Positions 1 to 25,695 of a stretch of 64,000 nucleotides of DNA are shown here, piece after piece. Positions within the stretch are counted from its first letter, which is position 1. Each line of letters opens with the position of its first letter. The position numbers were made by a program, and so were the translations under genes. The notes under the pieces were generated by a model, which was not told the origin of the DNA, made no database searches, and was given only the letters and a program-made list of their open reading frames with translations. Source of the stretch: Candidatus Woesebacteria bacterium GW2011_GWA1_39_21 (GTDB lineage: Bacteria > Patescibacteriota > Microgenomatia > UBA8517); the NCBI GenBank assembly GCA_000993685.1, contig LBWP01000006.1, positions 5,356 through 69,355 of the forward strand. The letters run 5' to 3'.

Positions 1-1605
1 TTTGAAAAATATGACTTGTGGTTTGAAAGTTTAACCCCTCCTTTTTCATTTTCATTGCTTCCGATTTTGACGAAAAAACCGGTTGTGGCAATCGTGCACA
101 TGCTTTCAGGAAAAGATATGAGAAGAAAGTATCATCTACCCTTCGATGTGGTTCAAAATTTTGGTTTGAAGCTTTACAGGCATTTTATAGTTTTATCAAA
201 GAAATCAAGAGCTGACATATTGAAGGTTAATAAAACTGCCGATATTCGAGTTATTCCAAACGGTGTTGATATCCCCAAGAAAGTAGATATGAAAAAAGAA
301 AACACAATCATTTTTATCGGGAGAATTGAAATTAATCAAAAAGGGCTTGACCTTTTACTGCATGCGTGGAAAAAGGCAGAATTAAAAATAGATGCAAAAC
401 TGGTAATTGCGGGTTCAGGACAAAATGGCGAAGTTGAAAAACTTAAAAAGTTGATCAATGATTTGAAGCTAAATAAAAGTGTTAAATATGTTGGGAGGGT
501 AGAAAATAGAAGTAAGGACGCTCTCTTTAGAAAATCACTTTTTGTCGTTTCTCCCTCAAGATTTGAAACATTTGGGGTAACCGCATTAGAGGCGATGTCC
601 TATTCGCTTCCGTTTTTGTGTTTTGATATTGATGGGTACAAATGGATCCCAAAATCAAATTGTTTGAAGGTTAAGAAGTTTGACATTAAAAGTTTTTCTG
701 ACAGCATCATTAGACTTATAAGTAATGTAAATTACAGGAAAAGCCTTTCTAGTAAATCTAAAAAATTTGTTAAACAATATAAATGGTCAAACATTGTTCA
801 AAGATATCAAGATTATATCAACGGACTATTTAATAAGAATATTTATGACTCAAATAAAATTATCGATACAATTATTAAGAACAAGCGAAGATGTGTTTTT
901 GTCTCTCCACATTTTGATGATGCCGCTTTATCCGCTGGAGGATTTTTGACGAAGATCTCCGAAAATAAAAAGGTTGTTGTGATTAATGTTTTTACAAAGG
1001 GTAATTCTGGACCATACACACTTAGTGCAAGTAAATTTTTGCAACTTTCTGATGTGTACGATGCAAACTATTTGTATGAAAAGAGAGCGATTGAGGATCA
1101 GAAAGCTTTGAAGAAGAAGAATATTCAAATTATTAATCTAGGATTTGTTGACGCAACGTTCAGGACAATTAACACGAATATTTTTCGAAAAACAGTTGGT
1201 AAGATTATTCCTGAGATGAATTATGTTTACCCGATTTATCGATTAAATGTTTTACATGGAAAAATATCTATCAACGATAAGGTGCTGTTGGAAAATCTAG
1301 CAGTTCGGCTGTCCAAAATCATCAAAAATGATGACATTGTCTTTGCACCACTTGGGATTGGAGGACATGTTGACCACAGGATTGTTAACCAGATTGTAAG
1401 AAAACTCAAAAATACGAAAGTTTTTTGGCGAGATTTTCCCTACAGTTCTTATGTCTCAGAAGAAATTATTGGCAACAAAAGAGTTCTGATATATAACGGG
1501 GAGCAAAAAAGTAGAGAATTAATGATAAGAAAATATGTTACCCAAGTAAATAGTATGTTTCCAAGTGGTGAGATAGAGCTCACACCTGAAGTTTATTGTT
1601 TTTAA
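1..1605 (+). CDS. 5'-truncated (runs off window start) bifunctional protein: GT4-type glycosyltransferase domain fused to a C-terminal PIG-L/LmbE-family N-acetylglucosaminyl deacetylase
   Basis: Frame is open from nt 1, with no start codon in the window. N-terminal half has GT1/GT4 C-domain motifs (FIGRIEINQKGLDLLL, EXFG: FETFGVTALEAM). C-terminal half has PIG-L/LmbE motifs (VSPHFDDAALSAGG and GGHVDHRIV). Confidence 0.7.
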   Translation, partial: FEKYDLWFESLTPPFSFSLLPILTKKPVVAIVHMLSGKDMRRKYHLPFDVVQNFGLKLYRHFIVLSKKSRADILKVNKTADIRVIPNGVDIPKKVDMKKENTIIFIGRIEINQKGLDLLLHAWKKAELKIDAKLVIAGSGQNGEVEKLKKLINDLKLNKSVKYVGRVENRSKDALFRKSLFVVSPSRFETFGVTALEAMSYSLPFLCFDIDGYKWIPKSNCLKVKKFDIKSFSDSIIRLISNVNYRKSLSSKSKKFVKQYKWSNIVQRYQDYINGLFNKNIYDSNKIIDTIIKNKRRCVFVSPHFDDAALSAGGFLTKISENKKVVVINVFTKGNSGPYTLSASKFLQLSDVYDANYLYEKRAIEDQKALKKKNIQIINLGFVDATFRTINTNIFRKTVGKIIPEMNYVYPIYRLNVLHGKISINDKVLLENLAVRLSKIIKNDDIVFAPLGIGGHVDHRIVNQIVRKLKNTKVFWRDFPYSSYVSEEIIGNKRVLIYNGEQKSRELMIRKYVTQVNSMFPSGEIELTPEVYCF

Positions 1606-1614
1606 GATTGAAAT

Positions 1615-2193
1615 ATGAAATACAAGGAATTTGTCGGTAAATTTGTTTCATCCCTAAACCTAGTTAAGAGGGATTTGGTTTTATTATTTACAGGTCCAAT
1701 TGAGTATATATATACATTTACGATCTCTAACTCTGTAAAGGTTAAAATTGAACCCCATAACAATTCCACCGAAAAAGTTGGGTTTTATATCATAAACAAA
1801 TTAAAGAGTCTTAAGACAAAAATTTATTTGAAACAAATTGGTTCGACAGTTTTAAAAATTCCAGGTAATAACGACGTAGATTTTATTGCTTATCCTTATG
1901 ATGGTAACTTACACAACATTATTCCCAACATTACTAAGATTTTTGGATCACCTAAAAAAGTTAAAAAAGAATTTGTTCAGTGGGAATTCAAAATCAAAGA
2001 AGTTGAGTGTGCGTTACTTTTAGCTAAGAGAGGATGTAGATTATATAAACGAATCTCGGAAGATCAAATGCTACTACAAAGTAACCAGAATAACGTTCAT
2101 AAATATGTGAAGATGAAATTGGCCTCAGACGGTGTTTCGTTGAGGGAATATGAGAGAAGAAAAATATATTTTTTTTATCAACTTAGAAAGTAG
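1615..2193 (+). CDS. hypothetical protein
   Basis: 192-aa ORF in the intergenic slot between glycosylation genes; no motif recognised. Confidence 0.3.
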   Translation: MKYKEFVGKFVSSLNLVKRDLVLLFTGPIEYIYTFTISNSVKVKIEPHNNSTEKVGFYIINKLKSLKTKIYLKQIGSTVLKIPGNNDVDFIAYPYDGNLHNIIPNITKIFGSPKKVKKEFVQWEFKIKEVECALLLAKRGCRLYKRISEDQMLLQSNQNNVHKYVKMKLASDGVSLREYERRKIYFFYQLRK

Positions 2194-2198
2194 TTTAT

Positions 2199-3662
2199 AT
2201 GTCAAATCGATCCAACATCATAAAAATCAATGTATTGTTAATGGTGACATTTATAATTACGACTGTAGTATTGGGCATAATTGTAAAGGGCGTGGCGGGA
2301 AACCTGTCTGCAAACGATGTTTACAATCTTCAAGCGAGGACACAGCCTTTTGAGTTATCTCCGGAACGGGGTCGTTTTGCGATAGTACAATCGCTTTTCG
2401 AATATCGGCGATTAGATTTTCCAAAAGAAGTTGCTAGGTATGTGATTCCTGACCTGGCCTACCGGGACGGTAAATTTGTTACACTGTTTCCACCAGGTGT
2501 GTCTTTTATTTCCTCACCACTTTACTATCTTGGAAAACAGTTTAATTACTCACAGTATTTTTCTTTTCTTACCGTTTCGATATTTGCCATCATCAACGTA
2601 TTTTTAATTTTCAAAATTGTGGCTTTGTTAACCTCTAACAAATATGCTGGGATTCTGGCAGGTTTAATATTTTTATTTTCAACAACAGCTCTTCCTTATG
2701 CTATAACACTGTACCAGCACCATTTTACAACGTTTTTTATTTTGTTGTCTTTGTTTTTATTTCTGAAAAAAAAATCGATAACCAGTTTGCTACTTAGCTA
2801 TTTTAAATTTATAGATATAAAGGTTGGAAAGAAGATAATTGTAAAGCTCAGTTACTCAATCTTTGTTGCTTTTTTGGCGTTTGTTGTGGGGATAATTCCA
2901 AATCTTGCCTTTAGTAAATATGTTTATGGAAATATGTTTCAGCTTGCAGGTACAGTTCGGGGTGTCAAAAATGTGCAGGTTCTTGAACCCGACATTGAAG
3001 CGGCACGCTCAAACAGCGAGCAGGCTGTAGATTCGAATAAATCCTTATCAAATTTTTTTCAAATGTCCAATGTTGCTAACGGATTTCAGGTCTTGATTGC
3101 TTCATCGGAGAGGGGATTTGTTTTTTATGCACCGGTTATGTTGTTGTCAATTTTCGTAATTTTTGTTTTTTCTAAATCAAGTGATGATAACAAAAAGACG
3201 ATTCGATTAGTATTTGTTGTTCAGTTATTAATTTTAATTTTGTACTTAATGTGGGGTGACCCATGGGGCGGTTGGGCATTTGGACCAAGGTACCTTATTC
3301 CCCTTTTTTCCTGTAACTCGATTCTATTAGGGGTTGTTTTGAATAAATATGGGAAAAACCTATTAATGTTGGCTCTATTTTCTGTTTTATTCATTTACGG
3401 CCTAGCTGTTAATACCGCCGGGGCATTGACAACAAACGCCCTGGCCCCTTCAAAGGAGGTCGAATCAGCATCACTTCCAAAAGTTCAGTACATGTTTAAT
3501 TTTCAGATGATAAGTGACAACCATTCATCTTCCTTTGTTTACAACAACCTATTAAATCAATATTTTGATTTGAAGACATTCTTTTTTCTTATCATTTCCG
3601 TTGTTAGCGTTTTGTATCTAATTAACTTGATTTTATTGTATAGGAGTGAATATGAAAATTAG
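2199..3662 (+). CDS. GT-C fold membrane glycosyltransferase, ArnT/PMT-like (GT39/GT83-type)
   Basis: Multi-pass membrane protein. First-loop pattern ERGRFAIV...YRDGKFVTLFPPGVSF..YYLG resembles the ArnT/PMT DE-x-R-Y-A ... KPPLxYW arrangement. Confidence 0.55.
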   Translation: MSNRSNIIKINVLLMVTFIITTVVLGIIVKGVAGNLSANDVYNLQARTQPFELSPERGRFAIVQSLFEYRRLDFPKEVARYVIPDLAYRDGKFVTLFPPGVSFISSPLYYLGKQFNYSQYFSFLTVSIFAIINVFLIFKIVALLTSNKYAGILAGLIFLFSTTALPYAITLYQHHFTTFFILLSLFLFLKKKSITSLLLSYFKFIDIKVGKKIIVKLSYSIFVAFLAFVVGIIPNLAFSKYVYGNMFQLAGTVRGVKNVQVLEPDIEAARSNSEQAVDSNKSLSNFFQMSNVANGFQVLIASSERGFVFYAPVMLLSIFVIFVFSKSSDDNKKTIRLVFVVQLLILILYLMWGDPWGGWAFGPRYLIPLFSCNSILLGVVLNKYGKNLLMLALFSVLFIYGLAVNTAGALTTNALAPSKEVESASLPKVQYMFNFQMISDNHSSSFVYNNLLNQYFDLKTFFFLIISVVSVLYLINLILLYRSEYEN

Positions 3663-6368: not shown

Positions 6369-7205
6369 ATGAAAGTTTCTCTCGTTGTCACGGTTCTTAA
6401 TGAGGAACCTTCTATTGCAGCACTTCTCGAATCGCTTATTTCCCAAACAAGGCAACCGGATGAGATCGTCATTGTCGACGGAGGGTCAAACGACAAAACA
6501 GTTAATATTATTAAAAGTTATCAGAAAGTCATTAAAGGCCTGAAACTTTTGGAGTTCAAAACGACACGATCTGAGGCGAGAAATATCGGAATCCGCTCTT
6601 CAAGCGGTGATGTAATTGTCACGACCGACGCCGGATGTGTTGCGGAAAAACACTGGATTAAAAAAATCACCCAGCCTTTTACTGATTCGAAAATTGCAGC
6701 CAGATCTTTGGCTTTCCGCAAAATTTTGTGGGAAAAAGTTGGTGGGTTTCCAGAGGGGCTAAAAGACACAGCTGAAGATACGATGTTTAATTACAATATC
6801 ATAAAGGCAGGTGCAAAAATTGCCCGTGTAAAAGATGCCATTGTTTATTGGCAACTCCCTCTAACTTTGATCGAAGGCTTTAAAAAAATATTTTTGTATG
6901 CAAAGGGCGATGCACGCTCGGGAATTTGGTGGCATCCGACGAAAAAATTTTCGACGCATAACATCAAAATTGCCTTTATTTACCTGCGTTACATTTTCGC
7001 CCTCTACTTTATTTTATTTATTCCCCTTTTCCCCGTTTTGAAACTGCCTTTCGTTTTGGGAGTGGTCTTTTACATGTTCTGGGCGTTTAAAAAAGTTTAC
7101 ACGCGGACAAATGACTGTTTAGCAGGTCTGTCTGGAGTTGTTGTCCAGTTTGCTTCCGATATCGCCGTAATGTGTGGCTTTTTGTCAGGATTGATTACTA
7201 TATAG
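6369..7205 (+). CDS. family 2 glycosyltransferase with C-terminal transmembrane segment
   Basis: N-terminus VSLVVTVLNEE...DEIVIVDGGSNDKT is a typical GT2 start; C-terminus is hydrophobic. Confidence 0.65.
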   Translation: MKVSLVVTVLNEEPSIAALLESLISQTRQPDEIVIVDGGSNDKTVNIIKSYQKVIKGLKLLEFKTTRSEARNIGIRSSSGDVIVTTDAGCVAEKHWIKKITQPFTDSKIAARSLAFRKILWEKVGGFPEGLKDTAEDTMFNYNIIKAGAKIARVKDAIVYWQLPLTLIEGFKKIFLYAKGDARSGIWWHPTKKFSTHNIKIAFIYLRYIFALYFILFIPLFPVLKLPFVLGVVFYMFWAFKKVYTRTNDCLAGLSGVVVQFASDIAVMCGFLSGLITI

Positions 7206-7920
7206 ATCTTTTGAATCTTTGGTAAACTCCAAACAAGTACCAGTAAATATATTTAGGTAGCCATTTCATTAGCTTAAATTTCGATTTACCGTATTTTCTG
7301 TCGACCCAAAATGTTGGGACCTCTGTGACTTTAAATCCGGCAAAATATCCTTTGATCAAAAGCTCCTCCGCAAATTCAAAACCACCCCTCGATTCGATTT
7401 TAATACTTTTCAAAATTTCTTTTTTAAACATTTTATAAGAATAGGTCAGATCCGATGTAGGAATTCCAAGAAGATATGGTGTTGTTATTCCTGATAGCCG
7501 TGAAAGGACAGATTTAAGTGTGACTTTGGAAACAATTCGTCCGCCCTTGGAATATCTGGTTGGGCAAACGATATCGTAACCTTGTTCAATTTTTTCATAC
7601 ATCGAGTTTAAAGTTTTAGGGTCGTCTGTTCGGTCGGCAGCCATCATTACTAAAATTTCTCCGCGAGCGGTGTTGAAACCTTTCAGGGTTGCGTTGACTA
7701 CACCTTTTCCAAAATCGTTACGAACCAAACGGATGTTTCTGTGCCTTGAAACTAGTTTGCGTGCAACCGGTAAGGTGTTGTCCTTTTCATCATCATAGAC
7801 AATAATTAATTCAAATTTTGGCCGAACGACCTTACGGATTTTATCAACTGTCCAAGCAAGATTTTTCCTTTCATTTTTGACTGGTAGGATAATACTAATT
7901 TCTGGTTTTTGTTGATACAT
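7198..7920 (-). CDS. GT2 polyprenol-phosphate sugar synthase (DPM1/GtrB-like dolichyl/undecaprenyl-phosphate mannosyl- or glucosyl-transferase)
   Basis: ISIILPVKNERKNL...ELIIVYDDEKDNT...AADRTDDP matches the DPM1/GtrB GT2 pattern. Soluble, 240 aa. Confidence 0.75.
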   Translation of the reverse strand: MYQQKPEISIILPVKNERKNLAWTVDKIRKVVRPKFELIIVYDDEKDNTLPVARKLVSRHRNIRLVRNDFGKGVVNATLKGFNTARGEILVMMAADRTDDPKTLNSMYEKIEQGYDIVCPTRYSKGGRIVSKVTLKSVLSRLSGITTPYLLGIPTSDLTYSYKMFKKEILKSIKIESRGGFEFAEELLIKGYFAGFKVTEVPTFWVDRKYGKSKFKLMKWLPKYIYWYLFGVYQRFKRSI

Positions 7921-8012
7921 GGATACCTGTTAGTCTAACGCAAGTATTTGTGAAAAAAAAGAATACCATTTTTGTTTTGATGAAATAATCAAATTGTGTT
8001 ATACAAATAAAG

Positions 8013-8660
8013 ATGAAAAGTTTTTTGGAAGTACGCTTTGATGAAAGTGATTTTAAAAAACGGGAACTGATTTGGAGAGAATTAATTAAAGTCTGTTTTC
8101 AAAGATATGTCAAAAAGACTGACACTGTTTTGGATGTCGGCGCTGGTTTTTGTGAATTTATCAACAACGTTATATGTAGGAATAAAATTGCCATCGATTC
8201 TTCGAATTTAATAAAAAAGTATGCAGACTCTGATGTTATAAAAATTGTTAAGCCGTTTTCAAAGATTCCTAAAAAGTATTTTGGAAGGTTTGATGTAATT
8301 TTCATGAGCAACTTTCTCGAACACTTGGAAAAAAAACCGGATGTTGTGAAAACTATGCAATTGTCTAGGAAGTTGCTTAAGAGGCGGGGTACGTTGATTA
8401 TTGTCCAACCGAATATCGACTTGATTAAAGAAAAATATTGGGATCGGATTGACCACCATATCGCCCTAAATGGCAGAAGTGTTATTGAAGCCTTGAATAT
8501 TTCAGGATTTCAATTGAAGATTTTTGAAAAACGTTTTACACCAGCTACGATGCAATCTCATTTGCCAATTTCAGATTTTTTGATTAGGATGTACTTATCT
8601 TTGCCTTCTTTTGCACGGCCATTCGCTGGACAAAGCCTGTTTATTGCTAGTAAAAGATGA
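8013..8660 (+). CDS. class I SAM-dependent methyltransferase
   Basis: Motif I VLDVGAGFCEF. Sits inside the glycosylation locus. Confidence 0.6.
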   Translation: MKSFLEVRFDESDFKKRELIWRELIKVCFQRYVKKTDTVLDVGAGFCEFINNVICRNKIAIDSSNLIKKYADSDVIKIVKPFSKIPKKYFGRFDVIFMSNFLEHLEKKPDVVKTMQLSRKLLKRRGTLIIVQPNIDLIKEKYWDRIDHHIALNGRSVIEALNISGFQLKIFEKRFTPATMQSHLPISDFLIRMYLSLPSFARPFAGQSLFIASKR

Positions 8661-8700
8661 AGAAAATGCTATATAATAATCTGCTTTCTGCCCTTTAATA

Positions 8701-9666
8701 ATGAAAAGGAGTGAGAAAATATTAATAACTGGTGCAGGTGGTTTTATTGGTCACCACCTGGCACGGTATTTGAAAATGAGGGGCTATTTTGTGCGTGGTG
8801 TAGATATCGAGTATCCTCAATTTTCAACACTAGACGATTTTAGCCAGTTTAAGCTTTTAGACATTCGAAGTTTCAGGAATTGCATGGAGGCTATGCAAGA
8901 TATAGATAAAGTTTATGCATTGGCCGCACTTAACGGCAGTATCGAATATACGACAAAAGAAAAGGCGGTTTTGGTACGAGACAACACGACAATAAATCTG
9001 AATACTGCCGAAGCGGCTGTTCGTTCTCACGTAAAGCGTTTATTTTATTCATCATCCGCTTGCGTGTATCCTGTTTGGAAACAGATGGAAGGAAACATTC
9101 AACCGCTGCGTGAAGAAGATTCATATCCAGCTCTGCCAGATAGCGAATACGGATGGGAGAAATTATATTCGGAGCGGATGTATAAATCTTACGAAACTGA
9201 TTTTGGTTTAGACGTTCGCATTGCAAGATTTTTCAATATTTACGGCCCTGAGTCTTTAATTGATACCTTAAAATCGAAGGCGCCAATGGCATTAACAAAA
9301 AAAGTCATTGAGGCAGGTAATGGTGGAACAGTCCAGATTTGGGGTGACGGACAGCAAGTCAGATCGTTTTGCCACGTTGATGATTGCTGCGAGGGGATTT
9401 ATTTGTTGATGAAATCTAATATTAATGAACCGGTAAATCTTGGTACATCTGATCACGTCAGCATTAACGAACTTGTCGATATGATAACAAAGATTGAGGG
9501 AATTAAAATCAAGAAGGAATACCAAATGGATAAAATTCAAGGCGTTCGGGCGAGACTTTGTGATTTTACGAAGGCGGAAAAACTTTTACGTTGGACACGC
9601 AAGGTAACTTTAGAAAAAGGTTTGAAAGAGATTAATATCTTTGTTCACAAACAGCTCGGGAAATAA
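8701..9666 (+). CDS. NAD-dependent sugar-nucleotide epimerase/dehydratase (extended SDR)
   Basis: Rossmann motif ILITGAGGFIGHHL; catalytic YxxxK (YGWEK); 321 aa. Confidence 0.8.
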   Translation: MKRSEKILITGAGGFIGHHLARYLKMRGYFVRGVDIEYPQFSTLDDFSQFKLLDIRSFRNCMEAMQDIDKVYALAALNGSIEYTTKEKAVLVRDNTTINLNTAEAAVRSHVKRLFYSSSACVYPVWKQMEGNIQPLREEDSYPALPDSEYGWEKLYSERMYKSYETDFGLDVRIARFFNIYGPESLIDTLKSKAPMALTKKVIEAGNGGTVQIWGDGQQVRSFCHVDDCCEGIYLLMKSNINEPVNLGTSDHVSINELVDMITKIEGIKIKKEYQMDKIQGVRARLCDFTKAEKLLRWTRKVTLEKGLKEINIFVHKQLGK

Positions 9667-9671
9667 GGTGA

Positions 9672-11222
9672 TCAATTATATAACCTTACTTCGTAATCTT
9701 CCCCCAACGATTGGCAACTTCCAATTTTTGTGAAGTCGTTGCTTTGGAGATAGCGCTCTATCTGACCACAGGATTTCATCTCTCGTGTTTTTTTGTTTTC
9801 GGGTTCCTGTGGTTTTTTTGCAAGAACCGCGAGCATGGGTTTTTGCGAAACTTGAAGCTCACCTGCAATAATTTTGCCGTATTTACAGCTATTGTGGATT
9901 CCCGGTTCTTCTGTAATAAATGAGCTGGCAGGTTTTAAATCGCTTCTCACTAAATATAACGAAGCGTTATTCCAAAGAAATTTATCGTACGAAAGACGCC
10001 CAACAAAGATTGACTTTCCTGGGACATTGTTCGTTAACCGGCGGCAATCCGATGTTTGCAGATCAATTTGATAACGCGCAAAATTATATCGAGGTACAAG
10101 TATGTATGATACTTTAACATACCAAGCCGCTAACGGTAAAAATGTCAAAAGTATAATGAAAAGCTTCGTTTGACTGAATAAATTTAGTGATTTGTTGAGA
10201 AGCACCCAGATGATACTGACAGCAAACCATAAAGGAACTGCGTGGAGCCAGTCGGATCGACCGATAGCGTAGAGCACAAACACGAGAGGATAGGATAAAA
10301 GGATTACACTACTAAGAAGTTTAGAAAGATGCTGGTTACCAAGCGAAGAAATTGCTATTTTTTTTGAACTTCTGATCAGAAGATATACGTAGATTACGAT
10401 GCAAAGGTAAATAAGTATTTCCGGACGTAACGGGTGTTTTGGAATGGGAAGCGGTAAATCTCTGTAGCTGGTGGTTAAAAATACTGGTATAACAAAGATA
10501 AAATCAATCGCGCTTTTCAAAACATTAAGCTTTTGTAAATAGAATAGCAATAAAGATAAAGATAAAAGATACGCTAAAAGTGAAAGGCGGATGTACCGGA
10601 AAAGTGTAACTAAAACAAAAGCATTTTTTTTCGTTGTGAGTCGGAAAGAGATGAAGATCAAAAAGTAAAGTCCGTGAAGAAATAACATCCAATCCCAGCG
10701 AAACCAAACGCTGGCAAATGTAACGGCGAAAGCAAAGAAGAGTGGTTTGATACTTTGCCGTTTAATGTAGTTTAAAAGCAAAAGAACATTTAATAATAAA
10801 AGCAGTAAAGAGAATGCTTCACTGCTTTCAAAAATTCTGATAACGGCTGATATAAACAAGATAACGATAGCAAGTTGGCAGTACAATCCAACTGTTTTTC
10901 GATTGCGAAAACCTAACATTAGCAGAATTGAAGTTGTCAGCAAAATGTAAAAAAGTGATTGAATAATGTTGTTTTGAATAATTGAAAGATATGGAAAGAT
11001 TTTTCCAAAGACAAGAAAAATACCTGGAGGATAGACAACTGAAAAGTCTCGATACGGAGTTAGTCCTCGTACGATATATATCTTAGAAAGAATTCGCAGA
11101 CTGCCATCAAAAATATCAACTTCGTAGCTGCCGATAATAAAAAGAAAGATTGTATATAGATAGAAGAAAAACGAAAGTAAGAAGAAATATTTTGCAATCT
11201 TGTTAATTGTTTTTTTATCCAT
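9672..11222 (-). CDS. polytopic integral membrane protein, possible additional GT-C type glycosyltransferase
   Basis: 516 aa with many TM helices. N-terminal loop YRDFSVVYPPGIFLVFG weakly resembles the GT-C loop motif. No firm assignment. Confidence 0.35.
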   Translation of the reverse strand: MDKKTINKIAKYFFLLSFFFYLYTIFLFIIGSYEVDIFDGSLRILSKIYIVRGLTPYRDFSVVYPPGIFLVFGKIFPYLSIIQNNIIQSLFYILLTTSILLMLGFRNRKTVGLYCQLAIVILFISAVIRIFESSEAFSLLLLLLNVLLLLNYIKRQSIKPLFFAFAVTFASVWFRWDWMLFLHGLYFLIFISFRLTTKKNAFVLVTLFRYIRLSLLAYLLSLSLLLFYLQKLNVLKSAIDFIFVIPVFLTTSYRDLPLPIPKHPLRPEILIYLCIVIYVYLLIRSSKKIAISSLGNQHLSKLLSSVILLSYPLVFVLYAIGRSDWLHAVPLWFAVSIIWVLLNKSLNLFSQTKLFIILLTFLPLAAWYVKVSYILVPRYNFARYQIDLQTSDCRRLTNNVPGKSIFVGRLSYDKFLWNNASLYLVRSDLKPASSFITEEPGIHNSCKYGKIIAGELQVSQKPMLAVLAKKPQEPENKKTREMKSCGQIERYLQSNDFTKIGSCQSLGEDYEVRLYN

Positions 11223-11280
11223 ACAAACCTACTTTTGGTAATGATATCATGGCCGCATAGAGTGAGTTACAATATAGCAA

Positions 11281-12495
11281 ATGGGATATTACCGAAAAAC
11301 ACTTCACGGCTTAAAGTATCAGACACTAATGCGCGCTTCAATTAGAATTATTGGTTTTATCAAAGTCGCGTTAATAGCACGGATTTTAGGGCCCGTCGAG
11401 TTTGGAATCTTTGGGATAGCAACTCTCTTGATGGGACTATTGGATACTTTCACTGACACGGGGATTAATGTTTTTCTAATTCAGGAGAAGAACAGTTTGA
11501 AAAAATTTCTTGATTCTGCGTTTTTTGTCTCGCTAACGCGGGCAGTTCTAATTGCACTAGTAATTGTTCTTCTTAACCCTTTTGTTAAGCAGTTTTTTAA
11601 CATCAGAAGTACAACACAAACTCTGCTTTTAGTTGCATTGGTCTCACTTTTGCGTGGTCTGATCAATCCTGCGATGGTGCAGTTTGAAAAGAAATTTCAG
11701 TTCGATAAACAGATGACTATCAGAGTGTTTCTATATCTACTTGACGCGATTTTTTCTATTTACTTTTGCTATAAATTCAGGGTTTCTGAAGCGATATTTA
11801 TGGGAATGATCGTTGGTGTCTTTATTGAGATTTTAATTTCCTGGTTTTTTATAAAGCCACGCGCGAAGCTCAAGTTGAATATTTCTCAATTGAAGTATGT
11901 TTTTACGAGAGGAAAGTGGATCACGCTAACGGGTATTTTTAACTATCTTTTCCATAATCTTGATGATATTTTTGTCGGCAGGATTTTAGGAGTTTCAAGT
12001 TTGGGTATATATCAACTTTCGTATAAACTTTCAACGGTTCCGATATACGAGACGGGGGAGATTTTCGGTAGAGTAACGCTTCCCGTGTATTCAAAAATAT
12101 CGCACAGTAAAGAGAGGTTAAAGAAAGCGTTTACAAAAGTAACGTTCGTAATATCACTTTTAGTTATTCCCCTGGGAATACTTTTAATCATCTTCGCCAA
12201 AAATATTGTCATGATTTTCGGCAACCAATGGCTTGAGGCAGTTCCAGTTGTCAGGTGGTTGGCGTTTTTTGGAATATTGAGAGCAATAACGGGTTCCGTT
12301 ACACCGCTTTTTTACGGCATCAAAAAACAGGAATATGCCATGAATTTCATTTTAGTTGGATTAATTGTACTGATTATTACGATATATCCTTTGGTTAAAA
12401 TCTACGGTATTATCGGGGCATGTATTTCTACAATAATTGCAACAATATCCACTATTCCGATAATCATTTTTTATTTAAAAAAGGAGTTTAAATGA
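11281..12495 (+). CDS. Wzx-like polysaccharide flippase (MOP/polysaccharide biosynthesis protein family)
   Basis: N-terminus RIIGFIKVALIARILGPVEFGIFGIATLL is typical of Polysacc_synt flippases; about 12 TM helices. Confidence 0.6.
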   Translation: MGYYRKTLHGLKYQTLMRASIRIIGFIKVALIARILGPVEFGIFGIATLLMGLLDTFTDTGINVFLIQEKNSLKKFLDSAFFVSLTRAVLIALVIVLLNPFVKQFFNIRSTTQTLLLVALVSLLRGLINPAMVQFEKKFQFDKQMTIRVFLYLLDAIFSIYFCYKFRVSEAIFMGMIVGVFIEILISWFFIKPRAKLKLNISQLKYVFTRGKWITLTGIFNYLFHNLDDIFVGRILGVSSLGIYQLSYKLSTVPIYETGEIFGRVTLPVYSKISHSKERLKKAFTKVTFVISLLVIPLGILLIIFAKNIVMIFGNQWLEAVPVVRWLAFFGILRAITGSVTPLFYGIKKQEYAMNFILVGLIVLIITIYPLVKIYGIIGACISTIIATISTIPIIIFYLKKEFK

Positions 12496-13292
12496 AAGAC
12501 GAGTTAAAAGAAGAAACACTAAAAAAACTGCTTCAGAAATTTTGGTATATCCCCTCTGACGTTGTACTTCGAACATATGAGGCGCTTCTTTGGAATAAGA
12601 TTAAATTTATCCACCCAAACCTCGATGTTGGCTGCGGAGATGGTGAGGTGGACGACTTTCTATTTAAGGGCAAGTATTTTGACTGTGCAATTGACGTTAT
12701 TGAGAGCGATATCCCCAAAGCTCGAAAATTATCAATTTATAAAAAGGTTATTAAGGCCGACGCAAGAGCTCTGCCTTTTAAAAACAATTCTTTTTCACAA
12801 GTGATTTCAAATAGCAGCTTTGAACATATTCAAAATGACGCTAAGGCGATTTCGGAAATTTCTCGTGTATTGAAAAAAGGAGGATTTTTTTGTTTTACAA
12901 CTACAAACAATTTTTTAAAAAAGGAGTTAAAGAAAATTACAGCATCCGACGAAAGGTTTATCAGCTACAACGAAAGAGTGAAACACTTTCATTACAGAAG
13001 TTTACAATCGTGGAAAAAAATTCTTTTTAAAAATGGTCTAAAGATTCGAAAGCATTACTTGTACATGGACGAAGACACAGTGAAAGTTTGGTTTTTATTG
13101 TTTCGCATGTTCACTTTTAAAATAAAGAAAAGAGAGCTATGGTCGTATTTAAGTAGTTCCAAAATCACAAAATTCATTCCTTCGTCGATAGTGGCTAAAG
13201 TGGAGCTTTTTGTACTAAAAAAAGTAGTCAGATTTGAATTTAGCCAAACGCAAGGACATTGGCTTTATATTGAAGCTGTTAAAACTATATGA
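12492..13292 (+). CDS. class I SAM-dependent methyltransferase (Methyltransf_11-like)
   Basis: LDVGCGDGE motif I; ARALPFKNNSFSQVISNSSFEHI motif II/III region. Confidence 0.65.
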   Translation: MKDELKEETLKKLLQKFWYIPSDVVLRTYEALLWNKIKFIHPNLDVGCGDGEVDDFLFKGKYFDCAIDVIESDIPKARKLSIYKKVIKADARALPFKNNSFSQVISNSSFEHIQNDAKAISEISRVLKKGGFFCFTTTNNFLKKELKKITASDERFISYNERVKHFHYRSLQSWKKILFKNGLKIRKHYLYMDEDTVKVWFLLFRMFTFKIKKRELWSYLSSSKITKFIPSSIVAKVELFVLKKVVRFEFSQTQGHWLYIEAVKTI

Positions 13293-14407
13293 AGATTGCA
13301 GTATTTCATAATTTACCTGTCGGAGGTGCCAAGAGAACGCTCTTTGAGCAGTTAAGTTATCTAATAAAAAGGCACGACGTTGACCTTTACGAATACAACT
13401 CGACAGATGAGACTTTATGGAATCTTAAAGATTTAGTAGCCAACGTTTTTTCTTACACGTTTGAAATCAAGCTAAATAAAAGCGGCATTATTAATAGACT
13501 TATCGCTGACCATAAAAATTTTTTCTTTCTAAATTCTCTCAACAGAAAAATCGCTTCGGACATCGATCATAAAAAATACGATTTAGTTCTTGTGCATGCC
13601 GATCGCTATACGCAGGCTCCTTTTATCTTAAGACATTTGAAAACTCCATCATTATATTTTTGCCAGGAGTATTTGAGGTTGGCTTACGAAAAAGAGGTGT
13701 CCTTTGGAGAAAAATTGACCGGCTTAAATTATCTTTATGAAAAAATCACCAGGTTAATTAGAAAAAATATTGATAAAGAAAATATTGAGTCTGCTGACTT
13801 TGTCGTTTGTAACTCCAACTTTACGAAAAAAAATGGTAACCGCGTTTATCGGCTGAAAAAAACTGCAGTCGATCATTTGGGTGTGGATGTTAAAAAATTT
13901 CATAAGTATGTCGTAAAAAGAAAGAATTATTTATTATTTATCGGCGAAAAAAACTTCGTTAACGGTTATCAACTTATAAAATCGATATCGTCAAAGACCA
14001 AGTGTGAGATTAAGATCTATGGTTATCATCAAGGAGCGCTTAGGGAGACGGATGATCTGAAGTTGGCAAAGATTTATTCCGAGGCGTTTTTAACGCTTTG
14101 TGTATCATATAAAGAACCCTTTGGGTTGGCAGCTTTGGAGTCGATGGCGTGTGCAACGCCGGTTCTTGCAGTCGATGAGGGTGGATATCGTGAGACGCTG
14201 GTCAATGAAGTCAGCGGGTATTTGCTCAAACGCGATGCGGATTTATTTGCAAAAAAAATTAAGGAGCTTCAAAATAACCGGAAACTGTACGAAAAAATGT
14301 CGTCGGCAGCTGTCAAATTGGTTAAAGCTAAATGGACTTGGCAGGTGCATGGGAAAAAATTAGAAGAGTACATGAACAAACTTATATCAACAAACAAGCA
14401 TGAGTAA
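13289..14407 (+). CDS. GT4 (GT1 superfamily) glycosyltransferase
   Basis: EX7E region EPFGLAALESMACATPVLAVDEGGYRETL. Confidence 0.75.
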   Translation: MKIAVFHNLPVGGAKRTLFEQLSYLIKRHDVDLYEYNSTDETLWNLKDLVANVFSYTFEIKLNKSGIINRLIADHKNFFFLNSLNRKIASDIDHKKYDLVLVHADRYTQAPFILRHLKTPSLYFCQEYLRLAYEKEVSFGEKLTGLNYLYEKITRLIRKNIDKENIESADFVVCNSNFTKKNGNRVYRLKKTAVDHLGVDVKKFHKYVVKRKNYLLFIGEKNFVNGYQLIKSISSKTKCEIKIYGYHQGALRETDDLKLAKIYSEAFLTLCVSYKEPFGLAALESMACATPVLAVDEGGYRETLVNEVSGYLLKRDADLFAKKIKELQNNRKLYEKMSSAAVKLVKAKWTWQVHGKKLEEYMNKLISTNKHE

Positions 14408-14789
14408 AGTTAGCTCAAGAAAAAAAATATTTTGGTTACTTTTTGGAATTTGGGTGTTTGTATTTTTAGTTGTTGACGCCTTTCGGGTTTTTAAAAAGAC
14501 TGTTTCAAAAATATACGAGGGAAATATACAAAAAGTCCAAAGTATGAGTGTGGATGAATTGTCAGCTTTGGCAAAAAGCAGAATTAAAAAGGGAAACTCT
14601 GTAGTTTTTCTTTCCGACGACGGCCTGGCGTACATGTATTTCAATCTGCTTTCCTATCCTCTGGTTGCGAAGTGGAGCACTGATTACACAGCCGTTGAAT
14701 TAAGGGATTGGGATTATCTTGTCGTTTATGACACGGTTAATATGTTTCAACTAAGAAGCGGACTATACTCGAAAAATGATTTTAATTAA
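14400..14789 (+). CDS. hypothetical membrane-anchored protein
   Basis: N-terminal TM helix; tightly packed in the operon; no motif. Confidence 0.3.
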   Translation: MSKVSSRKKIFWLLFGIWVFVFLVVDAFRVFKKTVSKIYEGNIQKVQSMSVDELSALAKSRIKKGNSVVFLSDDGLAYMYFNLLSYPLVAKWSTDYTAVELRDWDYLVVYDTVNMFQLRSGLYSKNDFN

Positions 14790-16122
14790 ATTTGTCATTG
14801 CCATAATTTTTACCTTCTTTGCCGGTGCTTGCGTATTCAGGTTATTTATGAAGGACAAAAGTGTTTCCGGACTTTTGTTTATCGCCACTTCTTTTTTCAT
14901 CGGCATGTCGGCAATTTCATTTCAGATGCAGCTTTATTCGCTTGTTGGGATACAATTTAGCGCTTTAAAATTGGGTCTACCATGGCTTATATTTCTACCA
15001 CTTTTCTTGAAAGAGAAGTATCTTTTTAAAGTTAAAATCAACTTGCGCAAAGTAGATAGTCCGCTTCTTTTGTTTTTTCTTTTGATAACTGTCTTTCAAC
15101 TCTCGCTGATTTTTTTGCGATTTTTTTTGCACAGAAATGCAATCGGATGGGACGGAATAAGCATTTGGTATTACAAAGCAAACGCTTTTTTTGTTGATAA
15201 AACAATTGATTTTAGCATTTTTACGAACCCGCTATTGGGCCAAGAAGGTTTAACCGATACATATATCCGTTCAAGTTACCCGCTTTTTCTGCCGTTATAT
15301 TTGGCGTTTATCTTTTTGACGATCGGAAAGTTCAGCATTTTTTTCGGAAACATAATTTGGATATTATGCTATCTCTTACTTTTAGTTGTCCTTTACAAAT
15401 TTTTGCTGCGCCGTTTTAATTTTTCTTTTGCTGTTCTTGGAATTTTTTTGTTAGTTTCGCTTCCCGCCAATTTTGATCATTTGGCGGGAAAATACGCCGG
15501 CTACGCCGATTTAATTCTAATGTGTTTTGCAACGACGGGTGTTATTTTTTTTCTGGAAGGGATTTTTCGTAAAAAACTGTATTATCTTTCAATCAGCCTA
15601 CTTTTGGCTTCTGCCGCTGCAAATATTAAGGAGGACGGAATGGTATTTTTGGCAGCGATAGCGATAATGTTTACCCTAACCTCTTTTGCAAAAAGAAAGT
15701 TTACAAACTTAAAATATTTAGCAGTTCCGCTTTTGATTGTTTCCCCCTGGTATGTTATTCGGGACATCTTGCGTTTCCCTTCTCTTCTCGACGCATCGAG
15801 CGGGGTGCATTTTGACAGGTTGGCGACAATTGTTGTTGTAATATTTCAACAATTTTTTGATGTTGGAAATTTTCTTTTTTTGTTCCCCCTGTTTCTGCTT
15901 ACGCTTGTCTTTTCCTACAGGGTTATTTTTAAACAATATTATGTCTATCTACTTGTTGTGATTGGCATGGTAATTGCTTGCTACGTTATAATCTTTATGT
16001 TAACACCGCTTGATCCGGTAAGGCACATCAACTCGCTTGCCGATCGGATTTTGTATACCGTTTCTCCTTTGATGATCATCTTTATCTTGCAAACCTTTTG
16101 GAATAGCTATATAGAAAAATAA
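14776..16122 (+). CDS. polytopic integral membrane protein of unknown function (glycan polymerase/transferase candidate)
   Basis: 448 aa, >10 predicted TM helices, embedded in the glycosylation operon. Confidence 0.4.
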   Translation: MILIKFVIAIIFTFFAGACVFRLFMKDKSVSGLLFIATSFFIGMSAISFQMQLYSLVGIQFSALKLGLPWLIFLPLFLKEKYLFKVKINLRKVDSPLLLFFLLITVFQLSLIFLRFFLHRNAIGWDGISIWYYKANAFFVDKTIDFSIFTNPLLGQEGLTDTYIRSSYPLFLPLYLAFIFLTIGKFSIFFGNIIWILCYLLLLVVLYKFLLRRFNFSFAVLGIFLLVSLPANFDHLAGKYAGYADLILMCFATTGVIFFLEGIFRKKLYYLSISLLLASAAANIKEDGMVFLAAIAIMFTLTSFAKRKFTNLKYLAVPLLIVSPWYVIRDILRFPSLLDASSGVHFDRLATIVVVIFQQFFDVGNFLFLFPLFLLTLVFSYRVIFKQYYVYLLVVIGMVIACYVIIFMLTPLDPVRHINSLADRILYTVSPLMIIFILQTFWNSYIEK

Positions 16123-16126
16123 CGAT

Positions 16127-18370
16127 ATGAAAAAACCTGATCTCTCGATAATATATGTTAACTACAATAGTCTGACCGATCTTTCACAATCAATTAGGTC
16201 ATTAATAAAATACGGATTTAAAAAGAATTTGGAAATTATCGTCGTTGATAATGGTCACTCTAAAGAAATCAAAAAAATTCTTTCGCAATTCCACACTAAG
16301 GTAAAGTTAATTAGAAGCAAAATTAATGGCGGCTATGGGGCCGGAAATAATCTAGGTGCGCTCATCTCAGTTGGAAAATACTTGCTATTTCTTAATCCCG
16401 ACACCGAAATGAAAAAGGGGAGTATTGACGTGCTTTATAACTTTTTAGAAAAAAACGACGACGTTGCAATTGTTGCACCAAACCTTGTTGATACAAGGGG
16501 AATTGTCTTTAAACAACTTGGCTCACGAAAGTTGACACCACTAAGAGGAATATTTTCATTATCGATTATCAACAGACTCTTTTCCGGTAACCCAATTGCG
16601 AAAAATTACAACCTCCTGGACAAAGATTTTAACAAAGTCCGTGAAGCAGACGTTGTCCCCGGTTCCGCGTTTATGATAAGAGCCTCGGTCTTTAAAAAAG
16701 TCGGCGGCTTTGATAAGCGGTTTTTTATGTACTTTGAGGAGTCGGATCTTTGTCTTCGCGTCAAACAGTTGGGGTACAAAATTGTTATCATACCGACTTC
16801 CGAAATTGTCCACAAGTGGAGTGACAGACAAAATAAAAAATTAAAAAAATATTTTTACAAAAGCCGTTTTTATTATTTTAAGAAACACTTCGGAGTGGTT
16901 GCCGCTTCGTTTGTCGAATTCATCTGCCGCTTAACCAAATATGATTTGGTATTCATCTTAATTTTCGCACTGGGCGCGTATCTGAGGTTTTATATGTCTA
17001 ACAAACTTTTTTATCTTGATTCGGAGGTTGCCGATAATTTGCTAGACATAAAAAACGCCTATTTAAGTAATAGCATCCCATTAATCGGTCCGCCAACTTC
17101 TCATCCTTGGTTGAACTTTGGTCCACTTTTCTATTGGATATATGGCCCTATTTTGATTTTTTTTAAGTTTAATCCGGCAACCCACATGTACTTTGGGCTG
17201 CTTGTTAGCTGTCTTGCAATTTTCTTGAACTACTTTGTTGTAAAACGCTTTTGGGGTTCTAAAATCGCAGTTTTGTCATCGCTGATTATTTCACTATCAC
17301 CGTTTTTATTGGGGTATGCATACCTTGGTAGATTTTATACATACACAGTAACTTTTTCATATCTAACACTATTTCTGCTTTTAAAGTTTTTAGATACGAA
17401 AAAAGGTCTTTTCTGGCTTTTTTTCAGTGTTGGATTGCTTTTGAACTTTCATTATTCGACACTTGTTTTGGCTCCAGCGATTCTTTTGCTTATTACTCTG
17501 CGTAAGATTAAGCTCTCGTTTAAGGATTTATTTATCTTACTCATTGCTGTCTTGTTGCCGCTCTCCCCACTTTTTATATATGATGCTCAAAATCATTTTG
17601 TCATGTTACAAAAATTGTTTTTATGGTTTCCATATCGGGTTTTGAGTGTTTTTTGGGTAATTAATGCGGGAAATGTTCCACAAGACGCGTTAGTTTCCGG
17701 ATACCAAATGTTTTTCGGATTTGTCGGAAATCTTTTGTCTTTTGAAGACGTTAAAACACTCCACATTTTGGCAGCATTGACTGTCTTTACGCTGTTACTT
17801 TTTACACTGATTAAATTCACGAAACTGGGAAAATATTCGCAAAACCTTATAATTATCTCCGGAAGTTCTTTGTTCTTACTGACTTTACACGGCGAGACAC
17901 CTAATCATTACTTTCTCTTTATCTCTCCATTTATTTTAATTTTGATAACGGTTGCACTAGTTAGACTTTTTCCGCGGAGAATATCGCTCTTTCTTCTACT
18001 TTTGATTTGTTCAGTGTTATTTTTTAACATCGTACTTTATCTCAAATTGAGGCAGAACAAAGTGATAACGACCTATTTTCAACAAAAACAAGTAGCAACG
18101 TTTTTGGTTAATGACAGTAACTCAAAAGCAATCTGGCTAAGAAGAATCGGTGAAAACGACCAGTTTGATGGAGATTTCGCGCAAAATTATGATTATCTTT
18201 TGTGGATGTTTGGAAACGAACCGGTAAGGTTGGGTAATCTGACCAATAGTCAAAAAAATCCACAAGTTGAATATATAATAGTGGAAGATAAGTCGTTTGA
18301 AGACAAAGCCTTTGTATCGATGCAAAAGTATTCAGTGTCAGGTGTAACAATTTTAAAAAAGAATTTATGA
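16127..18370 (+). CDS. fusion protein: N-terminal GT2 glycosyltransferase domain plus C-terminal ArnT/PMT-like GT-C membrane domain
   Basis: N-terminus LSIIYVNYNS...IIVVDNGHSKE...NPDTE (GT2 DXD). C-terminal polytopic domain has LDSEVADNLLDIKNAY...GPPTSHPWLNFGPLFYW, the ArnT/PMT loop-1 pattern. Confidence 0.65.
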   Translation: MKKPDLSIIYVNYNSLTDLSQSIRSLIKYGFKKNLEIIVVDNGHSKEIKKILSQFHTKVKLIRSKINGGYGAGNNLGALISVGKYLLFLNPDTEMKKGSIDVLYNFLEKNDDVAIVAPNLVDTRGIVFKQLGSRKLTPLRGIFSLSIINRLFSGNPIAKNYNLLDKDFNKVREADVVPGSAFMIRASVFKKVGGFDKRFFMYFEESDLCLRVKQLGYKIVIIPTSEIVHKWSDRQNKKLKKYFYKSRFYYFKKHFGVVAASFVEFICRLTKYDLVFILIFALGAYLRFYMSNKLFYLDSEVADNLLDIKNAYLSNSIPLIGPPTSHPWLNFGPLFYWIYGPILIFFKFNPATHMYFGLLVSCLAIFLNYFVVKRFWGSKIAVLSSLIISLSPFLLGYAYLGRFYTYTVTFSYLTLFLLLKFLDTKKGLFWLFFSVGLLLNFHYSTLVLAPAILLLITLRKIKLSFKDLFILLIAVLLPLSPLFIYDAQNHFVMLQKLFLWFPYRVLSVFWVINAGNVPQDALVSGYQMFFGFVGNLLSFEDVKTLHILAALTVFTLLLFTLIKFTKLGKYSQNLIIISGSSLFLLTLHGETPNHYFLFISPFILILITVALVRLFPRRISLFLLLLICSVLFFNIVLYLKLRQNKVITTYFQQKQVATFLVNDSNSKAIWLRRIGENDQFDGDFAQNYDYLLWMFGNEPVRLGNLTNSQKNPQVEYIIVEDKSFEDKAFVSMQKYSVSGVTILKKNL

Positions 18371-19143: not shown

Positions 19144-19147
19144 TAGT

Positions 19148-20647: not shown

Positions 20648-20649
20648 CT

Positions 20650-22605: not shown

Positions 22606-22614
22606 AATCTTCGG

Positions 22615-22686
22615 AGCCGATGAGGGGACTTGAACCTCTAACCTTTCCCTTACGAAGGGATTGCTCTACCGTTGAGCTACATCGGC
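22615..22686 (-). tRNA. tRNA-Thr (anticodon CGT)
   Basis: Hand-folded cloverleaf: 7-bp acceptor, GG-containing D-loop, anticodon loop TTCGTAA, T-loop TTCAAGT. One A-C mismatch in the T-stem; CCA not encoded. Confidence 0.7.
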
Positions 22687-24395: not shown

Positions 24396-24530
24396 TCGAT
24401 AGCTCCGACTCCGCTTACCGTATGATTTTCCCAAGGCAAAAGTAAAAACGTTAAAAACATTGGCTAGAACTCGGGAATGACTTTATTTCTTGAGGAAAAT
24501 TGGGGTAAACACAAAACCATTTCGCTATTG

Positions 24531-25617: not shown

Positions 25618-25695
25618 CAAATAAGTTCAAATTGGATAAAATAATAGAGTTCTTCCTTAATTTTTAACTTCACTTGATTATGTTAGAATATCCCT

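Follow-up and report, generated by a model that had tools for sequence, protein, structure and literature searches.

The window analysed here is a stretch of 64,000 nucleotides from a contig of the groundwater genome of Candidatus Woesebacteria bacterium GW2011_GWA1_39_21. Its first base falls inside a gene that joins a GT4 glycosyltransferase domain to an LmbE/PIG-L-fold de-N-acetylase domain. Frame 1 of the forward strand is open up to a TAA codon at 1603-1605 (534 codons), and this fusion gene lies within an envelope-glycan locus of about 30 kb that contains rml genes, Wzx, Wzy_C, PMT_2/GT-C proteins and many glycosyltransferases. A first-pass annotation, made from the letters of the window alone, had proposed that both domains are encoded by one open reading frame (ORF) truncated by the window edge, and that they successively transfer and de-N-acetylate N-acetylglucosamine (GlcNAc).

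One uninterrupted gene with two intact domains

Metagenome contigs reaching upstream of the window were recovered by exact match to the 192-aa protein encoded just downstream of the fusion gene. The six contigs obtained (L001-L006), from different samples, were mutually identical base for base upstream of the window start, and L001 showed one mismatch to window positions 1-2804. These contigs completed the ORF, and neither a stop codon nor a frameshift was found between the domains. The complete gene corresponds to KKR11497.1 in the NCBI record of the same bacterium, which encodes 618 aa and starts some 252 nt before the first base of the window, confirming the 5' truncation. As called, the full-length protein (P0001) has 639 residues; it is 100% identical to the window ORF, and the NCBI start is its M22. 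The 618-aa form is favoured because its start codon lies 4 nt past the stop codon of the preceding gene and at a position equivalent to the starts of homologues, whereas the longer model would overlap the preceding gene by 59 nt and its residues 1-19 have a predicted local distance difference test score (pLDDT) below 50 in the AlphaFold2 (AF2) model. Residue numbers such as H409 or E294 follow the 639-aa numbering of P0001, and numbering by window residue (window aa) is given separately.

Most relatives of the fusion are encoded by split genes with overlapping stop and start codons, so that one indel would fuse them. We therefore considered that the gene might be a sequencing or assembly frameshift joining two neighbours, or that its LmbE half might be degenerate and inactive. 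The presence of the same sequence on six contigs from independent samples makes a frameshift or an assembly artefact very unlikely, and the NCBI metagenome-assembled genome record carries it as well. At least 16 other protein clusters share the GT4-LmbE architecture, with 32-46% identity. In addition, the catalytic residues are all intact and the junction between the halves was modelled by AF2 as continuous helices (block-mean pLDDT 78-95). This explanation is scarcely credible, and we conclude that the fusion is not an assembly artefact. A scan for transmembrane segments detected none in the protein, which is soluble.

Three Pfam domains exceed their gathering cut-offs in the uninterrupted frame, as anticipated in the first-pass annotation. 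Two of them cover the N-terminal half: PF00534 (Glycos_transf_1) at window aa 96-255 (1.4e-30, 106.5 bits against a cut-off of 26.4) and PF13439 (Glyco_transf_4) at window aa 3-91 (32.6 bits against 28.5), the latter restricted to profile positions 72-168 because the window cuts the gene. The AF2 model of the whole protein reached a pLDDT of 93.6 and a predicted template modelling score (pTM) of 0.77. When the N-terminal half was compared with PDB by Foldseek, the top 50 matches were all GT4/GT-B enzymes (best E 1.7e-19), with PglH, BshA, MshA, GlgA and PimA at the top (TMt 0.74-0.82). Across 127 aligned GT4 domains of the family, G212, R213, K219, G243 and R292 are invariant, the glycine loop G40-G42 is 98-100% conserved and the EX7E glutamates E294 and E302 are 98-99% conserved. 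The two-lobe GT-B fold, the EX7E motif and the phosphate-binding GR...K motif are all present in this half. A match to PF20706 ('GT4-conflict') was set aside: it falls on the generic GT4 match, and no other sign of a defence system was seen.

The third domain, PF02585 (PIG-L), covers window aa 299-468 (2.8e-15, 57.4 bits against a cut-off of 28.2). The EX7E, PHFDD and H-x-D-H motifs were located where the first-pass annotation had placed them (Table 1). By alignment, His304 and Asp307 (window aa) are predicted zinc ligands, Asp306 is the predicted general base and the second histidine of HVDH is the predicted third zinc ligand. Among 244 domains of this LmbE subfamily, H409, D411 and D412 are 100% conserved and H561, D563 and H564 are conserved at 96%, 99% and 100%, respectively; R467, E470, D471, R493, Y515, P516, D583, P585 and Y586 likewise reach 96-100%. 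Together, these results show that both domains are intact and confidently folded and that they carry the catalytic residues of their families.

The nearest solved relatives of the LmbE half, by sequence as well as by fold, are Dbv21 (phmmer 4.7e-7) and Orf2* (9e-5), the deacetylases of the A40926 and teicoplanin pseudoaglycones (PDB 2x9l, 3dff, 3dfi). These enzymes share with it the SPH(L/F)DDA, R..ED, D(A/S)xxR, HxDH and W.D.PY motifs, and the zinc ligands of the two groups align. A domain-only AF2 model (pLDDT 91.2) gave LmbE-family enzymes as Foldseek matches 1-32, including Orf2*, Dbv21, Dac, BshB, MshB and LnmX. The template modelling scores were 0.60-0.66 for Orf2*/Dbv21 (E 6e-13), 0.43-0.48 for diacetylchitobiose deacetylases and 0.36-0.51 for BshB, MshB and LnmX. 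Orf2* and Dbv21 deacetylate GlcNAc on a large acceptor, and the freed amine is then re-acylated. They differ from the present domain in several respects: they are stand-alone proteins of non-ribosomal peptide synthetase (NRPS) glycopeptide clusters, their partner is a GT1 rather than a GT4 enzyme, and the LmbE half is only 16-18% identical to them. No NRPS gene was found in the locus by Pfam and NCBIfam scans. The LmbE subfamily described here is distinct, and nearer to Orf2*/Dbv21 than to the enzymes of thiol or glycosylphosphatidylinositol (GPI) synthesis.

This comparison bears on a thiol product, which the first-pass annotation had listed among the possible outcomes. In the BshA/BshB (bacillithiol) and MshA/MshB (mycothiol) pathways, as in the reading of the fusion, a GT4 enzyme transfers GlcNAc from UDP-GlcNAc and an LmbE-family enzyme then de-N-acetylates the product; a BshA/BshB-like or MshA/MshB-like pair could have been fused to serve a low-molecular-weight thiol pathway, and BshA and MshA indeed rank with the best Foldseek matches to that GT4 half. 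The enzymes of these pathways are separate proteins, however, and the GT4 half falls far below their NCBIfam equivalog cut-offs (BshA TIGR03999, 57.9 bits against 273.7; MshA TIGR03449, 46.6 against 462.5), while the LmbE half has no NCBIfam match to BshB, MshB or Mca at E <= 0.01. BshB and MshB are structurally distant from it (0.36-0.48, 11-18% identity) compared with Orf2*/Dbv21. The BshC-like and inositol-phosphate genes suggested as discriminating neighbours are missing: Pfam and NCBIfam scans of the ORFs of at least 100 aa in the 64-kb window revealed no BshC cysteine ligase, MshC, MshD, ino1/inositol-phosphate synthase or phosphatidylinositol (PI) synthase. The conserved partners of the pair are membrane proteins and glycosyltransferases, in an envelope-glycan context. 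We therefore rejected the thiol pathway, which appears very improbable.

Split relatives, recurrent fusion and conserved gene order

A search with the LmbE half alone returned mostly stand-alone Patescibacteria proteins of 250-270 aa with about 40% identity. Three of the corresponding genes were inspected on their contigs, and each lies directly 3' of a GT4 or GT2-GT4 gene with a 4-bp overlap. Exhaustive scanning of 1.84 billion representative proteins without a profile yielded 2,612 relatives, 240 of them below 1e-30. Among 267 collected LmbE-bearing proteins, 213 are stand-alone and at least 16 have the GT4-LmbE architecture; GT2-GT4-LmbE was found three times, and GT4-LmbE-GT2 and LmbE-GT2-GT4 (P0287) once each. 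The remaining architectures are LmbE-GT2 (about 10), LmbE-Acetyltransf_6 (8), LmbE-APH (5), LmbE with both APH and GrpB in either order (6) and LmbE-GrpB (1). The related GT4 domain is also found fused to GT2, Acetyltransf_6, GrpB or APH. Examples of these variable joins of LmbE to an APH kinase, GrpB, the FemAB/GNAT-like Acetyltransf_6 or GT2 are P0239, P0305, P0316, P0271, P0325, P0258, P0287 and P0346. So many combinations of the same domains imply a pathway that modifies an amino sugar in several steps.

The fusion has a 32-aa spacer, counted from the final conserved residue of GT4 to the initial one of LmbE; in other fusions it typically measures 28-43 aa. In split genes, the GT4 tail has a median of 10 aa and the LmbE head a median of 19 aa. 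Their sum roughly equals the fusion spacer, and the fusions are therefore simple read-through joins. In a neighbour-joining tree of LmbE domains, fusions are dispersed, which suggests repeated fusion or fission of GT4 and LmbE; as this tree carries no support values, repeated fusion is suggested rather than proven. Public databases name the protein 'hypothetical protein' or 'Glycosyltransferase', and for some homologues JGI automatic annotation gives a name to each half. A search of the open-access literature found neither a GT4-LmbE fusion nor this LmbE subfamily described.

The LmbE-domain alignment was scanned against one genome per GTDB species, and the locus counts refer to the best 80 of 302 confirmed relatives. 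These 80 relatives come from Patescibacteria (Woesebacteria, Amesbacteria, Roizmanbacteria, Chisholmbacteria, Parcubacteria and Saccharibacteria) and, with 29-35% identity, from cultured Actinomycetota (Arthrobacter, Paenarthrobacter, Kocuria, Streptomyces, Actinomycetospora, Actinoplanes, Geodermatophilus, Pseudonocardia, Kineosporia and Kineococcus). In 55 of the 80 loci, LmbE is immediately preceded by a GT4 gene on the same strand, and in one the two are fused; in 12 loci GT4 occurs elsewhere within 4 kb, and in another 12 it is absent from the locus. In Paenarthrobacter, the GT4 protein encoded before LmbE aligns with the window GT4 over its whole length at 30% identity (E 8e-56), which indicates that the pair was inherited together. 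The GT4 and LmbE genes are thus a conserved pair in Patescibacteria and Actinomycetota, one that has apparently been fused more than once. This gene order and the recurrent fusions give strong backing to the view of the first-pass annotation that both halves serve a single pathway.

In Patescibacteria, the module consists, in order, of a giant GT2-GT4 protein (1150-1500 aa), an optional GT2, GT4, LmbE, a variable gene (Acetyltransf_6, GT2, GrpB or APH) and two polytopic membrane proteins. These last two are homologous to the 487-aa protein that follows in the window and to the N-terminal 560 aa of its 903-aa neighbour (Table 1). In 17 loci, homologues of the 487-aa protein are encoded 3' of LmbE, at 18 places altogether (E 1e-52 to 1e-94); for the N-terminal domain of the 903-aa protein, 13 loci have homologues at a total of 15 places (E 1e-72 to 1e-113). 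In one of the modules, from Woesebacteria RIFCSPHIGHO2_01_FULL_39_32, the genes for GT4, LmbE and a GT2 are followed by one encoding a CE4 polysaccharide deacetylase domain (PF01522) fused to a GrpB-like domain (L010, 5682-7037). This is a second type of deacetylase, unrelated to LmbE, in the same module.

Two actinobacterial operons were scanned with Pfam, those of Paenarthrobacter nitroguajacolicus (L042, 2804-5901) and Streptomyces gilvifuscus (L025, 2168-6417). Both have the order GT4, LmbE, PMT/PMT_2 (GT-C). A large ORF upstream of GT4 was matched when the downstream PMT/PMT_2 proteins served as phmmer queries. No published function for such an operon was found in the open-access literature.

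The envelope-glycan locus and the proposed reaction

The features of the locus are listed in Table 1. Upstream of the window, L001 carries rmlA, rmlB, rmlC and rmlD-like genes and, immediately before the fusion gene (L001 3628-8130), a gene for a 1500-aa multi-domain GT2+GT4 glycosyltransferase, possibly a polymerising enzyme; counterparts of 1150-1200 aa are present in 3/3 related loci (L007-L009). The 192-aa protein encoded 3' of the fusion gene had no direct match in Pfam, NCBIfam or PDB sequence searches. It was linked to GrpB transitively: its phmmer matches, P0239 553-729 (3e-25), P0305 545-713 (2e-20) and P0093 4-184 (2e-19), are regions that score above the Pfam cut-off for GrpB (PF04229), and its sequence contains a GS...DVD motif of the nucleotidyltransferase (NTase) type. 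In relatives, the GrpB domain is fused to LmbE, APH or GT4. The 487-aa membrane protein has a weak NCBIfam match (9e-11) to the LA_3751/LA_3752 putative glycosyltransferase family. In relatives, the counterpart of the transmembrane domain of the 903-aa protein stands alone, with about 540 aa; the GH5 domain of the 903-aa protein is cellulase/mannosidase-like, and a glycoside hydrolase joined to a glycan-assembly membrane protein is an unusual arrangement. Compared with L001-L006, which are nearly identical to it in other respects, the window has 75 bp fewer near position 2804, inside the membrane-protein gene (487 against 512 aa), and 111 bp fewer near position 6696, inside the GT2 gene at 6369-7205 (278 against 315 aa). 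Neither difference shifts the frame, and strain variation or assembly differences could account for them.

Table 1. Features of the fusion gene and its surroundings. Positions are those of the window; entries from 6369 to 21911 are based on Pfam and NCBIfam scans, with any further basis given in the last column.
Feature	Position	Strand	Basis
GT4-LmbE fusion gene, 5'-truncated by the window	1..1605	+	single open frame
GT4 (GT-B, predicted retaining-type) glycosyltransferase domain; first ~84 residues of the N-terminal lobe outside the window	1..840	+	Pfam, AF2, Foldseek
EX7E motif ETFGVTALE, window aa 189-197 (P0001 E294...E302)	565..591	+	regex search and conservation
LmbE/PIG-L-fold predicted zinc de-N-acetylase domain	841..1602	+	PF02585, phmmer, AF2, Foldseek
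PHFDD motif, window aa 303-307 (P0001 H409, D411, D412)	907..921	+	aligns to SPHLDDA of Orf2*/Dbv21
HVDH motif, window aa 456-459 (P0001 H561, D563, H564)	1366..1377	+	aligns to HPDH of Orf2*/Dbv21
192-aa protein resembling GrpB (nucleotidyltransferase fold), divergent, 9 nt 3' of the fusion gene	1615..2193	+	transitive phmmer
Polytopic membrane protein, 487 aa, ~8 transmembrane-like segments	2199..3662	+	transmembrane scan
Polytopic domain (aa 1-560, ~9 transmembrane-like segments) with C-terminal GH5, 903 aa	3646..6357	+	transmembrane scan; PF00150 aa 584-869
GT2	6369-7205		
GT2 resembling polyprenyl-P-sugar (hexose) synthases	7198-7920	-	
Methyltransferase	8013-8660		
NDP-sugar epimerase/reductase	8701-9666		
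Protein with 10 transmembrane segments	9672-11222	-	transmembrane scan
Wzx flippase	11281-12495		
Methyltransferase	12492-13292		
GT4	13289-14407		
PMT_2	14776-16122		
GT2+PMT_2	16127-18370		
GT2	18367-19143		
PMT_2	18944-20647		
Wzy_C	20979-21911		
Surface protein, Glucodextran_B/Big domains	21895-22605	-	
tRNA Thr-CGT	22613-22686	-	
tRNA Gly-CCC	24530-24601	-	
tRNA Asp-GTC	25544-25618	+	

We propose, with a probability of roughly 55%, that the fusion protein is a cytoplasmic bifunctional enzyme in which a GT4 half and a zinc-dependent LmbE half successively transfer and de-N-acetylate an N-acetylhexosamine (HexNAc). The gene would have arisen by read-through between two genes that remain adjacent, with a 4-bp overlap, in most relatives. 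Its GT4 half would act at the cytoplasmic face, transferring HexNAc in alpha linkage to an acceptor that is membrane-bound and lipid-linked, and in the simplest case the HexNAc would be GlcNAc taken from UDP-GlcNAc; the choice of GlcNAc is what we infer from analogy. The LmbE half would then strip the N-acetyl group and leave a glucosamine (GlcN) residue with a free amine, which may be kept as a cationic group or serve as a handle for further modification. The intermediate would finally be passed to the conserved downstream polytopic proteins and to the Wzx, Wzy and GT-C proteins of the locus. The variety of fusion partners suggests that further derivatisation of the freed amine, or of hydroxyls close to it, is frequent; candidates for such a role in this genome are the GrpB-like gene and the two methyltransferase genes. 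To our knowledge, in every characterised GT4/LmbE pairing (MshA/MshB, BshA/BshB, PIG-A/PIG-L, BtrM/BtrD and aminoglycoside homologues), GlcNAc is transferred from UDP-GlcNAc and the LmbE enzyme deacetylates the product, which is why we place transfer before deacetylation.

Several observations weigh against this proposal. The reaction order is taken from precedent, and in P0287 the LmbE domain precedes GT2 and GT4. Foldseek ranks HexNAc users first (TMt 0.77-0.82), with users of GDP-Man (PimA), UDP-Glc (HepE, WaaG) and ADP-Glc (GlgA) nearly equal (0.61-0.76), so that neither the fold nor the profile matches distinguish one donor from another. The GT4 half reaches no NCBIfam equivalog cut-off and approaches none, and the donor sugar is consequently not readable from its sequence. 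The LmbE fold also hosts chemistry other than deacetylation, as illustrated by the GalB hydratase far down the Foldseek list. Finally, no priming phosphoglycosyltransferase was identified among the scanned window ORFs.

Part of this evidence would fit a different division of labour, in which the LmbE half removes the N-acetyl group of a HexNAc that is already in place, such as the priming GlcNAc of polyprenyl-PP-GlcNAc, and the GT4 half adds another sugar. Such an enzyme would be an intracellular counterpart of linkage-unit deacetylation, and the added sugar could be rhamnose (as for the streptococcal GT4 enzyme GacB), mannose or glucose. The rml genes stand just upstream in L001, a similar set occurs in L009, and both the indifference of the GT4 fold to the donor and the variable domain order seen in P0287 are compatible with it. 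On the other hand, only 4 of the 80 loci have rml-like genes within 4 kb (in Patescibacteria, the 4.5-kb giant glycosyltransferase gene pushes rml past the examined flank), and none of the actinobacterial loci with an adjacent GT4-LmbE pair does. Conservation of the pair therefore does not depend on a supply of rhamnose. The top structural neighbours of the GT4 half are HexNAc transferases, and the characterised pairings all transfer and then deacetylate. We consider this alternative unlikely.

The GT-C proteins raise the question of the acceptor. In a GPI-like or lipoglycan-anchor pathway, which would be a sub-case of the proposed transfer and deacetylation differing in acceptor, GlcNAc would be placed on PI, phosphatidylglycerol (PG) or diacylglycerol, converted to a GlcN-lipid by LmbE, flipped and extended outside by GT-C enzymes. 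This would mirror PIG-A, PIG-L and PIG-M, or PimA followed by PimE/Mpt enzymes. The resemblance to PIG-A and PIG-L, which catalyse the first two steps of GPI-anchor synthesis, lies in a lipid-acting GT4 GlcNAc transferase, a PIG-L-family deacetylase and subsequent GT-C enzymes. PMT_2/GT-C genes accompany the GT4-LmbE pair both here and in Actinomycetota, and may be functionally linked to the fusion enzyme: the Paenarthrobacter and Streptomyces operons place a PMT/PMT_2 protein directly after LmbE, the window locus has three PMT_2 proteins and a GT2 resembling polyprenyl-P-hexose synthases, and in Patescibacteria two polytopic proteins always follow LmbE. GT4 enzymes acting on lipid acceptors, such as PimA, PIG-A and GpgS, are well known. 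By contrast, the PIG-A-specific Pfam domain is absent among the Pfam matches of the fusion protein, the host is a bacterium and a PI acceptor finds no support here, with neither PI synthase nor inositol-phosphate synthase among the scanned window ORFs. The 487-aa and 903-aa membrane proteins (the latter through its N-terminal domain) match actinobacterial PMT_2 with an hhalign probability of only 16-21%, a figure that over-extended ORF calls in the high-GC loci may have lowered by degrading the profile. Moreover, Wzx and Wzy_C are typical of polyprenyl-PP-linked repeat units. Of the lipid-anchor product considered in the first-pass annotation, what stands is the proximity of GT-C-like membrane proteins, its sole basis; the match to PIG-A fails. 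A GPI-like or lipoglycan anchor is, in our judgement, quite unlikely.

Other systems share the logic of transfer followed by deacetylation. For the GlcN-phosphatidylglycerol of Pseudomonas aeruginosa, the GT4 enzyme GpgS makes a GlcNAc-lipid, the cytoplasmic deacetylase GpgD converts it to a GlcN-lipid and the membrane protein GpgF moves it (PMC12713373). GpgS and GpgD thus follow the same two steps as those proposed for the fusion, but the proteins are not fused, GpgD belongs to COG3233 and not to the LmbE fold, and the GpgS model of NCBIfam matches the GT4 half weakly (2.9e-7, 29.7 bits against a cut-off of 480). Aminoglycoside synthesis offers a further parallel. There, BtrM/BtrD, NeoD/NeoL and KanF/KanN pair a GT4 GlcNAc transferase with an LmbE-family deacetylase. 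The resemblance extends to relatives of the fusion, which link APH-, NTase- and GNAT-like domains to the GT4/LmbE pair. The present locus differs in that it has no 2-deoxystreptamine genes, and its membrane proteins, Wzx and Wzy point to an envelope polymer.

As the GT4 and LmbE pairing is already a familiar route to free-amine glucosamine in glycoconjugates, the chemistry proposed for the fusion protein is unsurprising. What is new is the presence of both steps on one polypeptide, the distinct LmbE subfamily and the conservation of the gene pair from ultra-small bacteria of the candidate phyla radiation (CPR) to cultured Actinomycetota, in each case next to polytopic GT-C-like proteins. The fusion points to an unstudied cell-envelope pathway, probably building a glucosamine-containing glycan. 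The surface chemistry of CPR bacteria is essentially uncharted and matters for their episymbiotic lifestyle, and the cultivable Actinomycetota that carry the pair offer a genetic route to the putative GlcN-containing envelope component. A broader view, which we put forward as improbable speculation, is that the GT4-LmbE pair, its changing partners (GrpB, APH, Acetyltransf_6, GT2) and the GT-C-like proteins form one pathway shared by Patescibacteria and many cultured Actinomycetota. It would build a lipid-anchored envelope glycoconjugate with free-amine or re-derivatised glucosamine, a bacterial counterpart of the first steps of GPI assembly. If true, such a pathway would be genetically testable in Streptomyces or Arthrobacter.

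Other features of the window

The end of the glycan locus is marked by the three tRNA genes of Table 1, beside the Glucodextran_B/Big surface protein and a LysM protein. From about 24 kb onward, the window contains housekeeping genes (GatCAB, DnaE, UvrABC, enolase, PPDK and others). Within this part, at 30521-34863, a gene for a major facilitator superfamily transporter (32262-33521) lies between gatA (30859-32265) and gatB (33496-34863), with overlapping gene ends; the gatC-gatA-gatB order is otherwise standard around this insertion. A NAGPA-domain protein is encoded at 39139-39903 on the reverse strand. It is a phosphodiester glycosidase related to the GlcNAc-1-phosphodiester 'uncovering enzyme' and may be relevant to phosphodiester-linked envelope sugars. 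A protein with a 'putative phage metallopeptidase' domain is encoded at 42046-42513 amid the housekeeping genes, and a 600-aa transglutaminase-core protein (55954-57756) is inserted between uvrA and uvrC.

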